Shown here piece after piece: positions 4,393 through 8,979 of a DNA stretch of 64,000 nt (its first letter is position 1; each line of letters starts with the position of its first letter). The position numbers and the translations under genes are program-made. The stretch is taken from NCBI RefSeq assembly GCF_013315695.1, contig NZ_CP054353.1; one strand, written 5' to 3'. The stretch is from Escherichia coli (lineage in GTDB: Bacteria > Pseudomonadota > Gammaproteobacteria > Enterobacterales > Enterobacteriaceae). The notes beneath the pieces are model-generated. The model had not been told where the DNA came from, searched no databases, and saw only the letters and a list, made by a program, of their open reading frames with translations.

Positions 4393-4428
4393 AAAAAACC
4401 GTGGCGTATTTGCGCTGCGGTTTTTTTT
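4393..4428 (+). terminator. rho-independent terminator after secF
   Basis: 8-bp stem (ccgtggcg / cgctgcgg, two G-U pairs) with 5-nt loop followed by T8. Confidence 0.55.
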
Positions 4429-4490
4429 CGATTGTTGATTATTTTACTGAATACAGCTTTGGTTGTAGAAAGAGTTCTGACATATACTTT

Positions 4491-4507
4491 GTATTAATAG
4501 TTAATAC
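4491..4507. promoter_or_regulatory. perfect palindrome gtattaa-tag-ttaatac upstream of the antitoxin gene; candidate autoregulatory operator
   Basis: 17-bp palindrome 14 bp upstream of the antitoxin ATG, next to a GGAG ribosome-binding site at 4510-4513. Confidence 0.4.
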
Positions 4508-4520
4508 ATGGAGATCGCTT

Positions 4521-4763
4521 ATGCGCAAAATTACCTCAGTAAGCGTTGGCGAACAATTAGATAGTTTTATTACCCGGATGGTCCAGTCTGGTCGTTATGG
4601 CTCGGCCAGTGAAGTGATGCGTTCAGCGCTTCGTCTATTGGAACAACAAGAATCCCGGGATGAAGCTGTCAGAAATGCAGTTATTGAAGGTCTTGAGAGC
4701 GGTGAAAGTTCGATGACGCTTCGTGATATCGCAGCAGAAAGGAAGCAAAAACATCGTGTATAA
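4521..4763 (+). CDS. type II antitoxin, ParD/ribbon-helix-helix family
   Basis: 80-aa product with RHH-like N-terminus and ...SASEVMRSALRLLEQQE... motif; stop overlaps the downstream toxin start by 8 nt. Confidence 0.8.
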   Translation: MRKITSVSVGEQLDSFITRMVQSGRYGSASEVMRSALRLLEQQESRDEAVRNAVIEGLESGESSMTLRDIAAERKQKHRV

Positions 4764-5037
4764 GCTTAGCGGAAAAGCTGTTGAAGATTTCAGAGGGATC
4801 TATGACTACACGCTGGGAAAGTTTGGTGAGGAGCAGGCGGATCGCTATACCGACTCTCTCGGCATTTTTTTGGATACACTCTCTCAAATGCCCGAGATTG
4901 GTCAAGACTATGATGCGATTCCAGAGGTAAAGAAGATCGCATTTAGGTTTCACACTGTTTATTACGTTATAAGAGTCGATGACATTCTCATTGCGCGCAT
5001 TCTTCATCAGCTGATGGAACCTCGCCGTCACTGGTAA
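4756..5037 (+). CDS. type II toxin, ParE/RelE family
   Basis: 93-aa product (GTG start) with ParE-like features: YKLSGKA...DF..IYDYT N-terminus, YYVIRVDDILIARILH C-terminus; start overlaps the antitoxin stop. Confidence 0.8.
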   Translation: MYKLSGKAVEDFRGIYDYTLGKFGEEQADRYTDSLGIFLDTLSQMPEIGQDYDAIPEVKKIAFRFHTVYYVIRVDDILIARILHQLMEPRRHW

Positions 5038-6692: not shown

Positions 6693-7099
6693 TTACTGCA
6701 TAACAGGTTGAATGTCGTGGATACGTACAAAGTCTAACTGTTCTACAGAAATCCCCTTTAACTGTAACGGAATATCAACATCGCTGGGGACGAGGACGCT
6801 GGCAGGGGCATTAATCAATTGATTCTGCAAATTGATTTCCTGAAAGTTGTCTATTGTTCCCTGAATTTGCCCATATTCAACAGTTCCGCTGAATGCGGGC
6901 AAGGGGTCATTCGACTCGCCCTGAATACGTAGCGTCAGGGTGGTGCCATCTGTATCATGCGTAATATTCACTAGCGACATACGTAAAGTACCGATCTGGC
7001 TTTCCAGTCTTGCCGGTGTTTTCGCTCCAGGCAGAAGGTAAACCCCACTGCTGGATTTTGCATTCAGCCTGTTTTGCTGAGTGATTTTGACGGTTTCTT
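6693..7099 (-). pseudogene. yajI: yajI lipoprotein gene, 3' (C-terminal) fragment separated from its 5' part by an IS insertion
   Basis: reading frame open from about 7127 to stop at 6693 (about 135 codons); no start or signal peptide; matching N-terminal piece found at 8851..8979. Confidence 0.75.
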
Positions 7100-7118
7100 T
7101 ATCCGGTGCGCCGTAAAA

Positions 7119-7138
7119 CCCCGTCCTTCAGGGCGGGG
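7119..7138 (+). repeat. left-end subterminal hairpin ccccg-tccttcaggg-cgggg
   Basis: 5-bp stem with 10-nt loop; same orientation and same loop as the right-end hairpin. Confidence 0.7.
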
Positions 7139-7159
7139 ATATAAGGCGCGGTTTTCCAC

Positions 7160-7590
7160 CTGACCAGGTGTTTGCTGTTGTTCAATGTATTGGCGGATGA
7201 CGGATATTGGCGCACCTCCGCAGCTACTGGCAAAATAGCCAGGACTCCACAAAACGCCTTTGTAGTAATACCTGACTGCAATATCTGGTCGATCTCGTCG
7301 CAGTCACCTACCCGATACGCCTTTGAGGCTGTTTACCAGACTGGATATCGCCAGTTTGGGAGGATAGTTAATTAACAAATGGACGTGATCTGGTTCGCCA
7401 TCCATTTCAACCAGTTCAGCTTCAAAATCAGCACATACATTTGAATAGTAAGTGCGTAGTTTTTCTGTCGCGTCATGGTCAAAAATCTGGCGTCGGTATT
7501 TGGGACAAAGACCAGGTGAACATGCATCAGGAAAACACAATGCCTTCCACGCCGGATATCGGTTTCTTTTTTCACAGACCAAAGTATCAT
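7160..7590 (-). pseudogene. tnpA: IS200/IS605 Y1 (HUH) transposase tnpA, inactivated by a frameshift and an in-frame TGA
   Basis: frame A gives ...HVHLVFVP, frame B gives CPKYRRQIF...DHVHLLINYPPK...LKGVSGR then TGA at 7304-7306, then WSPGYFASSCGGAPISVIRQYIEQQ in the same frame. Confidence 0.8.
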
Positions 7591-7597
7591 TTGACCT

Positions 7598-8806
7598 GTG
7601 AAACGATTACAGGCATTTAAATTCCAGTTAAGACCAGGTGGTCAACAGGAGTGTGAAATGAGGCGCTTCGCAGGCGCATGTCGTTTCGTTTTCAATCGTG
7701 CTCTGGCGCTTCAGAATGAGAATCATGAGGCCGGTAATAAATACATCCCTTACGGGAAAATGGCTTCCTGGCTGGTTGAGTGGAAAAACGCCACTGAAAT
7801 GCAATGGCTTAAAGATTCGCCCTCACAGCCATTGCAACAGTCACTGAAAGACCTTGAGCGGGCTTACAAAAACTTCTTCCAGAAGCGGGCTGCTTTTCCC
7901 CGATTCAAAAAGCGGGGACAGAATGATGCATTCCGCTACCCGCAGGGCGTTAAGCTCGATCAGGAAAACAGCCGTATTTTTCTGCCGAAACTTGGCTGGA
8001 TGCGCTACCGGAACAGCCGTCAGGTCACGGGTGTTGTGAAAAATGTCACTGTCAGCCAGTCCTGCGGTAAGTGGTACATCAGTATTCAGACAGAAAGTGA
8101 AGTATCCACTCCGGTTCACCCTTCAGCATCAATGGTCGGGCTGGATGCTGGCGTGGCTAAACTCGCCACGCTGTCAGATGGCACAGTCTTTGAGCCTGTA
8201 AACAGTTTTCAGAAAAACCAGAAGACGCTGGCGAGACTTCAGCGACAGTTAAGCCGCAAGGTCGAATTCAGCAATAACTGGCAGAAGCAGAAACGCAAAA
8301 TACAGCGACTGCATTCCCGTATCGCAAATATCCGCAGGGACTACCTTCACAAAGTCACAACGACCGTCAGCAAAAACCACGCAATGATAGTCATTGAGGA
8401 TTTGAAGGTCAGCAACATGTCAAAGTCAGCAGCGGGTACGGTCAGCCAGCCGGGGCGCAATGTCCGGGCAAAATCAGGTTTAAACCGTTCGATACTGGAT
8501 CAGGGCTGGTATGAAATGCGCCGCCAGCTTGAGTACAAGCAGCTCTGGCGTGGCGGTCAGGTGCTTGCTGTTCCGCCAGCGTACACAAGCCAGCGTTGCG
8601 CGTGCTGTGGTCATACAGCGAAAGAAAATCGCCTGTCACAAAGTAAATTCAGATGCCAGGCATGTGGATATACAGCGAACGCTGATGTAAATGGCGCTCG
8701 TAACATTTTAGCGGCGGGGCACGCCGTTCTTGCCTGTGGAGGGATGGTGCAGTCAGGCCGCCCGTTGAAGCAGGAACCCACCGAAATGATTCAGGCGACA
8801 GCCTGA
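7598..8806 (+). CDS. tnpB: IS605-family TnpB (OrfB), RuvC-like RNA-guided endonuclease family
   Basis: 402-aa ORF, GTG start; N-terminus resembles the ISDra2 TnpB N-terminus as I recall it; RuvC motifs [22 protein letters not shown] and CxxC...CxxC zinc finger all present. Confidence 0.92.
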
Positions 8807-8870
8807 ACGTAGCAGGGATCCACGTCCTTCAGGGCGTGGAGGATGTCAATGAGTTGCGTCATCTCCTGGT
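8650..8870 (+). ncRNA. predicted TnpB guide RNA (omega/right-end RNA) spanning the tnpB 3' end, the right-end hairpin and a flank-derived guide; not directly observed
   Basis: inferred from the known architecture of TnpB elements; right-end hairpin at 8820-8839 and intact tnpB upstream. Confidence 0.35.
8820..8839 (+). repeat. right-end subterminal hairpin ccacg-tccttcaggg-cgtgg
   Basis: 5-bp stem with 10-nt loop, 14 bp downstream of the tnpB stop. Confidence 0.7.
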
Positions 8871-8979
8871 TCAGTGTGCTGACGCTGTGTTTCATCTGCC
8901 GCACTTCGCTTTGCTGCACACAGGCGCTAAGGCTGAACAGGCTTCCCAGCAGGAGCAGTCGAAAAACGTTAGTATTCAT
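8851..8979 (-). pseudogene. yajI: yajI lipoprotein gene, 5' (N-terminal) fragment with signal peptide and lipobox
   Basis: ATG at 8979 then MNTNVFRLLLLGSLFSLSAC (lipobox LSAC); frame runs into the IS right end. Confidence 0.75.

Follow-up and report, generated by a model that had tools for sequence, protein, structure and literature searches.

An IS609 copy with a broken tnpA and an intact tnpB interrupts the lipoprotein gene yajI of Escherichia coli

The yajI locus and the exact ends of the insertion

The DNA analysed here, referred to as the window, is a stretch of 64,000 nucleotides (nt) from Escherichia coli contig NZ_CP054353.1 (assembly GCF_013315695.1). In it, the lipoprotein gene yajI is interrupted by a 1747-bp copy of IS609, an insertion sequence (IS) of the IS200/IS605 family, which carries an intact gene for the RNA-guided endonuclease TnpB and a pseudogene of the transposase TnpA. 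The gene listing of the window and genome comparison place the element in the E. coli gene neighbourhood tgt-yajC-secDF-yajD-tsx-yajI-nrdR-ribD. The features of the locus are listed in Table 1.

Table 1. Features of the interrupted yajI locus, with positions in the window
Feature	Position	Strand	Basis
IS609 copy, 1747 bp; top (active) strand is plus	7103–8849	+	Identity to IS609 copies, empty-site alignment, divergence of relatives after GTCAA
yajI 3' fragment: last 2 nt of codon N44 to the stop codon, including the C-terminal domain	6693–7102	-	K-12/042 alignment
yajI 5' fragment: start codon, signal peptide and lipobox (LSAC), to L43 and the first nt of codon 44	8850–8979	-	List of open reading frames, alignment to intact YajI
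Target tetranucleotide TTAT: left cleavage site and predicted transposon-associated motif of TnpB; outside the element	7099–7102	+	yajI sequence (codons N44–K45 on the other strand)
Left end (LE): guide tetranucleotide AAAA (7115–7118), imperfect hairpin CCCCGTCC-TTCA-GGGCGGGG (7119–7138) in a longer GCGCC/GGCGC stem	7103–7160	+	DNA folding, relatives
tnpA pseudogene (Y1 HUH transposase, 143 aa when intact)	7160–7590	-	Three-frame translation, comparison with intact IS609 TnpA
tnpB, intact gene of a 402-aa RNA-guided endonuclease, GTG start	7598–8806	+	ISDra2 structure match, Pfam, NCBIfam
Predicted omegaRNA scaffold (right element RNA, reRNA); overlaps the tnpB 3' end and the right end; 5' limit approximate	8703–8849	+	Sub-threshold Rfam matches, consensus fold
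Right end (RE) core: GGAT (8816–8819), imperfect hairpin CCACGTCC-TTCA-GGGCGTGG (8820–8839), cleavage site TCAA (8846–8849)	8816–8849	+	DNA folding, relatives
Predicted 16-nt omegaRNA guide TGAGTTGCGTCATCTC; yajI sequence read through past the RE	8850–8865	+	Place directly 3' of the RE, ISDra2 model (PMC8612924)

The ends of the element were set by alignment to the uninterrupted yajI genes of K-12 and E. coli 042. The K-12 gene matches the window as far as position 7099 and picks up again at 8850. Compared with the 042 allele, the insertion is seamless: the element lies directly 3' of the tetranucleotide TTAT, without target-site duplication or deletion, and the empty site of 042, ...GTTTCTTTAT^TGAGTTGCG..., equals the joined flanks of the window with the exception of one synonymous single-nucleotide polymorphism 10 nt off. 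In-silico excision yields a yajI open reading frame (ORF) of 540 nt, which encodes a 179-aa YajI of the K45 allele. An earlier note on this DNA, made from its letters alone, had placed an element without target-site duplication inside yajI and had named alignment to an uninterrupted gene as the check; the uninterrupted alleles indeed lack the 1747 bp of internal sequence, and the flanks of the window join exactly as in 042. The limits proposed in that note, 7100–8850 for the element and 6693–7099 and 8851–8979 for the yajI pieces, were correct to within 3 nt and are replaced by the exact ones in Table 1.

Both yajI pieces are annotated in RefSeq as partial SadB/YajI (DUF3251) lipoprotein. The reading frame of the 5' fragment enters the RE and meets a stop codon at 8791, which may give a 62-aa lipoprotein remnant containing 19 IS codons (8791–8979, minus strand).

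A polymorphism of yajI coincides with the insertion site. Insertion-bearing lineages have lysine at position 45, which reads TTTAT on the plus strand, while K-12 (positions 2917–2921 of locus L003) and O157 have glutamine, which reads TTGAT. Many E. coli strains, 042 among them, carry an intact yajI with an empty TTTAT site. Since the K45 allele supplies TTAT and the Q45 allele does not, the yajI allele decides whether IS609 and its TnpB can target this site.

Identity and distribution of the element

The full-length nucleotide identity of the element to IS609 copies in E. coli genomes is 98.0–99.1%, and by this measure it is IS609, a catalogued E. coli insertion sequence of the IS200/IS605 family. 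The identity to the copies of O157:H7, whose TnpA is named 'IS200/IS605-like element IS609 family transposase' in RefSeq, is 98.0–98.1%. According to the ISfinder isoform convention, elements with more than 90% nucleotide identity are the same IS; the comparison was made with the RefSeq-named O157:H7 copies, and the window copy exceeds this level over its full length. The family assignment made in the earlier note is sound, as the TnpA profile match, the hairpins, the seamless insertion and TnpB all agree with it.

Among 5426 complete E. coli genomes, the 1747-bp element was matched in 4858 (~90%) at a coverage of at least 80%, mostly with 95–99% identity; the median number of places per genome was two. 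The best-known copy adjoins ydcO, where K-12 has insQ. No second copy of IS609 was found within the window. The left junction of yajI::IS609, probed with 28 nt of yajI plus 28 nt of the LE, is present in 340 of these genomes (~6%), exactly in 86 and with one mismatch in 254. At yajI::IS609 loci, RefSeq gives the order partial DUF3251/SadB-YajI, tnpA pseudogene, 'RNA-guided endonuclease InsQ/TnpB family protein' and partial DUF3251; the insertion is already known, being annotated by NCBI in 340 complete genomes.

The tnpB gene

The product of tnpB matches the structures of ISDra2 TnpB (8bf8, 8ex9, 8exa and 8h1j) over residues 3–376 with an E-value of 1e-53. The Pfam domains HTH_OrfB_IS605, OrfB_IS605 and Cas12f1-like_TNB were found in the protein, and it scores 390.9 bits with the NCBIfam model guided_TnpB, the cut-off of which is 100. 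Two of the RuvC motifs are GLDAGV (residues 181–186) and IVIEDL (264–269), the third occupies residues 361–370, and the paired cysteines lie in CACCG (334–338) and CQACG (353–357). Residues D183, E267 and D363 align to the catalytic residues D191, E278 and D361 of ISDra2 TnpB, and C334/C337 and C353/C356 align to its zinc-finger cysteines. The earlier note had described a 402-aa TnpB with intact RuvC motifs and an intact CxxC...CxxC zinc finger and had set the alignment to ISDra2 TnpB beforehand as a test; the motifs are present and the RuvC catalytic residues are not lost. The protein differs in seven residues, none of them catalytic, from the RefSeq protein WP_000826423.1 of the same locus.

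The ratio of nonsynonymous to synonymous substitution rates (dN/dS) of tnpB in pairwise comparisons of ten IS609 copies is 0.14–0.45, the exception being the copy at a TetR locus, whose values in comparison with two yajI copies are 0.72 and 0.86. Between yajI copies on two diverged flank haplotypes, the ratio is 0.19–0.21. Literature searches on the function of the insQ/IS609 TnpB turned up no published activity result; one screen included the purification of a protein labelled IS609, for which the text read gives no activity (PMC12781874).

In both sampled ydcO-linked copies of IS609 (ydcL-ydcO locus; L004 and L012), tnpB is full-length and tnpA contains a stop codon; comparison of strain D7 with K-12 gives a tnpB dN/dS of 0.26 at a synonymous divergence (dS) of 0.045. 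It is possible, to judge from these values, that TnpB has been retained for a long time there in an immobile element.

The tnpA pseudogene

ORF pieces resembling tnpA are found in two frames of the minus strand, at about 7160–7590, divergent from tnpB. An in-frame piece of 65 aa matches the NCBIfam model transpos_IS200 (E = 6e-21), and the HUH motif (HVH) and the C-terminal tyrosine motif can be recognised in the remnant, so the hallmark of Y1 HUH transposases is present in a non-functional form. The intact TnpA of IS609 is 143 aa long, with H69 and H71 forming the HUH motif and Y135 as the probable catalytic residue, and scores 145.7 bits with transpos_IS200. Compared with it, the window gene has three lesions: a 1-nt deletion between 7503 and 7504, which shifts the frame at codon 30; an in-frame TTA to TGA change at 7304–7306 (L96*); and the change of the natural stop codon TAG to CAG at 7160–7162. 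The RefSeq annotation reads 'frameshifted; internal stop; incomplete'. With these three lesions, the window copy is non-autonomous and unable to move or excise alone. The divergent arrangement of tnpA and tnpB reported in the earlier note is correct in orientation; the decay of tnpA had gone unnoticed there.

Among the copies compared, the 1-nt deletion is confined to yajI copies of the window type. L96*, in the context UGA-C, and the lost natural stop codon are common to IS609 copies at ydcO, yedK and yajI (loci L004, L008, L012 and L022). Their occurrence at three loci implies either that an element already defective was mobilised in trans or that gene conversion carried the lesion from copy to copy. 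The K-12 copy, which has the same stop codon, is reported to lack transposition activity (PMC2891674), and it never moved in mutation-accumulation lines (PMC5009759).

Terminal structures and target choice

The subterminal hairpins mentioned in the earlier note were located near both ends (Table 1). Both are on the plus strand and there are no terminal inverted repeats. Each hairpin contains a T–G pair that turns into an A–C mismatch on the complement, so the hairpins fold better on the plus strand; the folding energy of the LE DNA is -14.6 kcal/mol on the plus strand, which is better than on the minus strand.

The sequence YTTAT stands directly 5' of CCGGTGCG at all seven IS609 loci examined. 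The cleavage sites published for IS609 from P1-like plasmids, TTAT on the left and TCAA on the right (PMC6906374), coincide with the sequence 5' of the LE and with the final four bases of the RE in the window. In relatives, the LE guide tetranucleotide covaries with the target: AAAA occurs with TTAT in Salmonella P1-like and Klebsiella plasmids, and AAAG with TTAC in Xylella and in Enterobacteriaceae Kacie_13. In IS608, the tetranucleotide at the foot of the hairpin reportedly reads the cleavage site, AAAG pairing with TTAC. By this rule, the covariation identifies TTAT as the true target. From the K-12 alignment alone, the site was at first read as an ISDra2-like TTGAT target in which a later G-to-T mutation had altered the motif. 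That reading was dropped because of the YTTAT at every IS609 locus, the natural empty TTTAT alleles of yajI and the published TTAT site (PMC6906374).

The plus strand is G-rich at the locus (positive GC skew), and the window is collinear with K-12 at 0.43 Mb, in the clockwise replichore; the top strand of the element therefore lies on the lagging-strand template. A bias towards this template is said to be expected for the IS200/IS605 family. As the ends required in cis are intact, TnpA from another IS609 could still mobilise the copy.

The predicted omegaRNA and its guide

Ten relatives with TnpB identities of 58–98% can be aligned through the 3' end of tnpB to the invariant GGAGGATGTCAA, which ends in GTCAA, and are unrelated directly after it. 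Searching the relatives for RE-like ends by regular expression gave no match, and the alignment was used in its place. The divergence straight after GGAGGATGTCAA marks the boundary of the RE and the start of locus-specific guides. The RNAalifold consensus of the ten sequences contains 44 base pairs, 13 of which show compensatory changes. Paired cells make up 94.3% of the total, against 41–49% when the partners are slid by 1–3 columns; pairs changed on both sides number 13, against 2–3 in the slid controls, and none of 500 shuffles reached the observed values. Besides the terminal helix, those at 8711–8727, 8741–8763 and 8786–8810 covary.

In the omegaRNA region, no Rfam family was found above its gathering threshold. 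Matches below threshold, to families of the right kind, on the right strand and at the right position, are HgcC (8739–8862, E = 0.01), sot0042 (8679–8840) and RAGATH-18 (8733–8776). The alignment and the fold show that the predicted omegaRNA scaffold is conserved and ends at the transposon boundary; the transcript itself is a prediction. The putative guide TGAGTTGCGTCATCTC at 8850–8865 is the sole perfect match to itself within the window. This match follows GTCAA rather than TTAT, and the occupied site is thus no target.

Two flank haplotypes and the history of the insertion

Two flank haplotypes have IS609 at the same TTAT of yajI and in the same orientation, as can be seen at loci L001, L002, L021 and L022 (window positions 7075–7130 and 8850–8880). 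Haplotype A is that of the window and comprises the 86 genomes with the exact left junction. In haplotype B the flanks resemble those of K-12 and have TTTAT; this haplotype was seen in both one-mismatch genomes examined (L021 and L022), and most or all of the 254 genomes of this kind probably carry it. The flanks of the two haplotypes differ by ~2%, with differences as close as 10 nt and 26 nt to the junctions, and the elements themselves are 1.2–1.8% apart. The reconstructed yajI genes of A and B differ by nine synonymous and five nonsynonymous substitutions (dN/dS 0.16), which suggests that the haplotypes diverged while yajI was functional. The tnpA gene is broken differently in them: by Y76* in L021, by L96* in L022, and by L96* together with the deletion in the window group. 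Empty TTTAT alleles were found for haplotype B; a search of E. coli genomes did not find the exact empty allele for haplotype A.

This pattern can be explained by a single old insertion with later recombination in the flanks and precise excisions, by two independent insertions at one TTAT, or by guided re-acquisition, each of which is possible. Transfer of the insertion between haplotypes by homologous recombination or homing is disfavoured by the sequences, since no donor tract is common to them beyond 10 nt and 26 nt and the elements differ by 1.2%. On both backgrounds tnpB stays open under purifying selection although tnpA was lost in different ways. An improbable reading of this is that yajI::IS609 is a natural trace of the persistence or re-acquisition of a non-autonomous IS609 in E. 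coli populations, assisted by TnpB and omegaRNA through homing into TTAT-allele yajI; one old insertion plus ordinary flank recombination is the alternative.

The window element differs from the nearest same-locus copy in the databases at 15 sites (7319–8683), while no difference is found in 1054 nt of flank. At seven of the 15 sites the window has the consensus state of IS609, and two states (7446 and 7800) are private to it. These differences are likely to have arisen by gene conversion among IS609 copies, as their distribution suggests; no single donor matching the window-specific differences was found among the sampled copies.

Proposed explanation and its alternatives

We consider it very probable that a non-autonomous IS609 has knocked out yajI in this strain and that, with tnpA dead and the TnpB/omegaRNA module intact, standard TnpB activity is the likeliest behaviour of what remains. 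The mechanism proposed here is modelled on work on ISDra2 and on IS605-family elements of Geobacillus (PMC8612924, PMC10055086, PMC10278001). IS609 entered codon 44 of yajI 3' of a TTAT that lies in the template of the lagging strand, by the single-strand mode of transposition called 'peel-and-paste', and thereby knocked out the lipoprotein gene; tnpA was destroyed before that or since. If expressed, the tnpB mRNA would be processed to an omegaRNA with the flanking yajI sequence TGAGTTGCGTCATCTC as its 3' guide. The TnpB–omegaRNA complex may then cut DNA bearing 5'-TTAT followed by TGAGTTGCGTCATCTC, which is the empty yajI site of the K45 allele, whether it arises by excision or arrives by gene transfer. 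The transposon-associated motif (TAM) is taken here to be TTAT, in line with the target site of TnpA. A cut at the empty site would favour repair from an IS-bearing copy, and with it retention of the element, and the occupied site would be spared, because its guide match follows the GTCAA end of the RE. The K-12-type TTGAT allele of yajI would probably remain uncut.

Several observations weigh against a module that is made and active in this strain. The GTG start of tnpB has no obvious Shine–Dalgarno sequence before it, and a sigma-70 consensus scan found no promoter-like site for tnpB or tnpA; the terminator-like matches from scanning lie within coding sequence. Transcription from the yajI promoter would cross the RE and the omegaRNA scaffold in antisense. 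Covariation in the terminal helix of the scaffold (helix 8) does not speak for RNA structure alone, because TnpA binds the same hairpin as DNA. The tnpB genes of the window and its closest relative (L001) differ by eight nonsynonymous and four synonymous substitutions (dN/dS 0.58), a ratio that, with only 12 substitutions, is uninformative and cannot be distinguished from relaxed constraint on the window's own lineage. In L022, a yajI copy on the other haplotype, TnpB is truncated at 385 aa. Since tnpA is dead, excision would be rare or absent unless another IS609 provides TnpA, and a retention function would then have little to act on. The dead tnpA, the result of the promoter scan, the truncation in L022 and the inactivity of IS609 in K-12 (PMC2891674, PMC5009759) would all fit an inert relic, in which tnpB is open merely for want of time and neither TnpB nor omegaRNA is made or active in the strain. 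The same can be said of the ratio of 0.58, given a rough estimate that the ORF would survive 12 random substitutions more often than not. Such a relic is nevertheless on the unlikely side, considering the low dN/dS of tnpB across IS609 copies and across orthologous yajI copies on diverged backgrounds, the full-length tnpB ORF in nine of the ten copies compared, whereas most tnpA genes are broken, and the catalytic residues, zinc-binding residues and RNA helices, which are all intact in the window copy.

The opposite case, an autonomous mobile IS609, would require the nonsense codon to be read through and the 1-nt deletion to be bypassed by slippage of the ribosome or of transcription, so that functional TnpA is made. 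UGA-C is a weak (leaky) stop context in E. coli, and the presence of L96* at ydcO, yedK and yajI could mean that nonsense-bearing elements still move. However, the frameshift at codon 30 lies upstream of H69/H71 and Y135, the GGGAC at this place is no slippery run, the K-12 copy shows no transposition with the stop codon alone, and trans-mobilisation or gene conversion explains the common L96* equally well; we regard autonomy as extremely improbable. It is very unlikely, too, that TnpB has been domesticated for a host function, such as RNA-guided repression or exclusion of incoming DNA. In favour of such a role, tnpB has outlasted tnpA at a number of fixed loci, the near-universal copy at ydcO among them, and its dN/dS is well under 1. 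Known exapted TnpB regulators (TldR) have lost RuvC residues, whereas D183, E267 and D363 are kept here; moreover, the guide is whatever flanks the RE and is different at every locus, 94% of genomes lack the insertion, and no host gene is linked to it.

Comparison with known systems

The closest counterparts of the window copy are the other copies of IS609, the K-12 copy by ydcO (the yncK/insP pseudogene plus insQ) and the intact copies of O157:H7, with identities of 98.0–98.7% over the whole 1.75 kb. All have the order LE, reversed tnpA, forward tnpB and RE, with equal end hairpins and TTAT/TCAA sites. The K-12 copy shares L96* with the window; in contrast to it, the window copy is located inside yajI and has the additional 1-nt deletion in tnpA. 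Elements consisting of LE, tnpB and RE without tnpA (L013, L015, L017 and L020) are found in Salmonella IncY P1-like, Klebsiella IncF and Xylella plasmids, and their TnpB proteins are 80–95% identical to that of the window. They have the same LE and RE and a TTAT (or TTAC) target; however, tnpA is deleted and the LE is ~25–35 nt upstream of tnpB, whereas the window keeps a full-length, though broken, tnpA. The P1-like plasmid insertion has been described as IS609 (PMC6906374).

ISDra2 of Deinococcus radiodurans (8EXA, 8BF8 and 8H1J) resembles the window element in its divergent tnpA and tnpB, RuvC triad and zinc finger, and its omegaRNA, which covers the 3' end of tnpB and the RE and takes its guide from outside the RE, corresponds to the one predicted here. 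The two TnpB proteins are distant in sequence, and the motif is TTGAT in ISDra2 and TTAT in the window, where nuclease activity is a prediction. IS608 of Helicobacter pylori has similar single-strand subterminal imperfect hairpins, a tetranucleotide 5' of each hairpin foot and the right site TCAA, but its tnpA and tnpB are co-oriented and its target is TTAC. The proteins are far apart: the H. pylori match is 26% identical to the TnpB of the window.

A neighbouring toxin–antitoxin pair

Another difference from K-12 can be noted in the gap between secF and yajD (4401–5037), which contains a two-gene toxin–antitoxin pair in the window and only a 128-nt spacer in K-12. The first ORF encodes an antitoxin of the ParD family (NCBIfam TIGR02606, 94 bits), and the downstream ORF is annotated as a RelE/ParE toxin in RefSeq relatives.

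Significance

Beyond correct annotation, the importance of this copy is slight, as IS609 is in ISfinder and is routinely reported by mobile-element finders. The strain is a natural knockout of yajI, whose product, a paralogue of SadB, has no known function (PMC3953254). The complete TnpB/omegaRNA module, with its predicted TTAT TAM, is a candidate native RNA-guided nuclease of E. coli.

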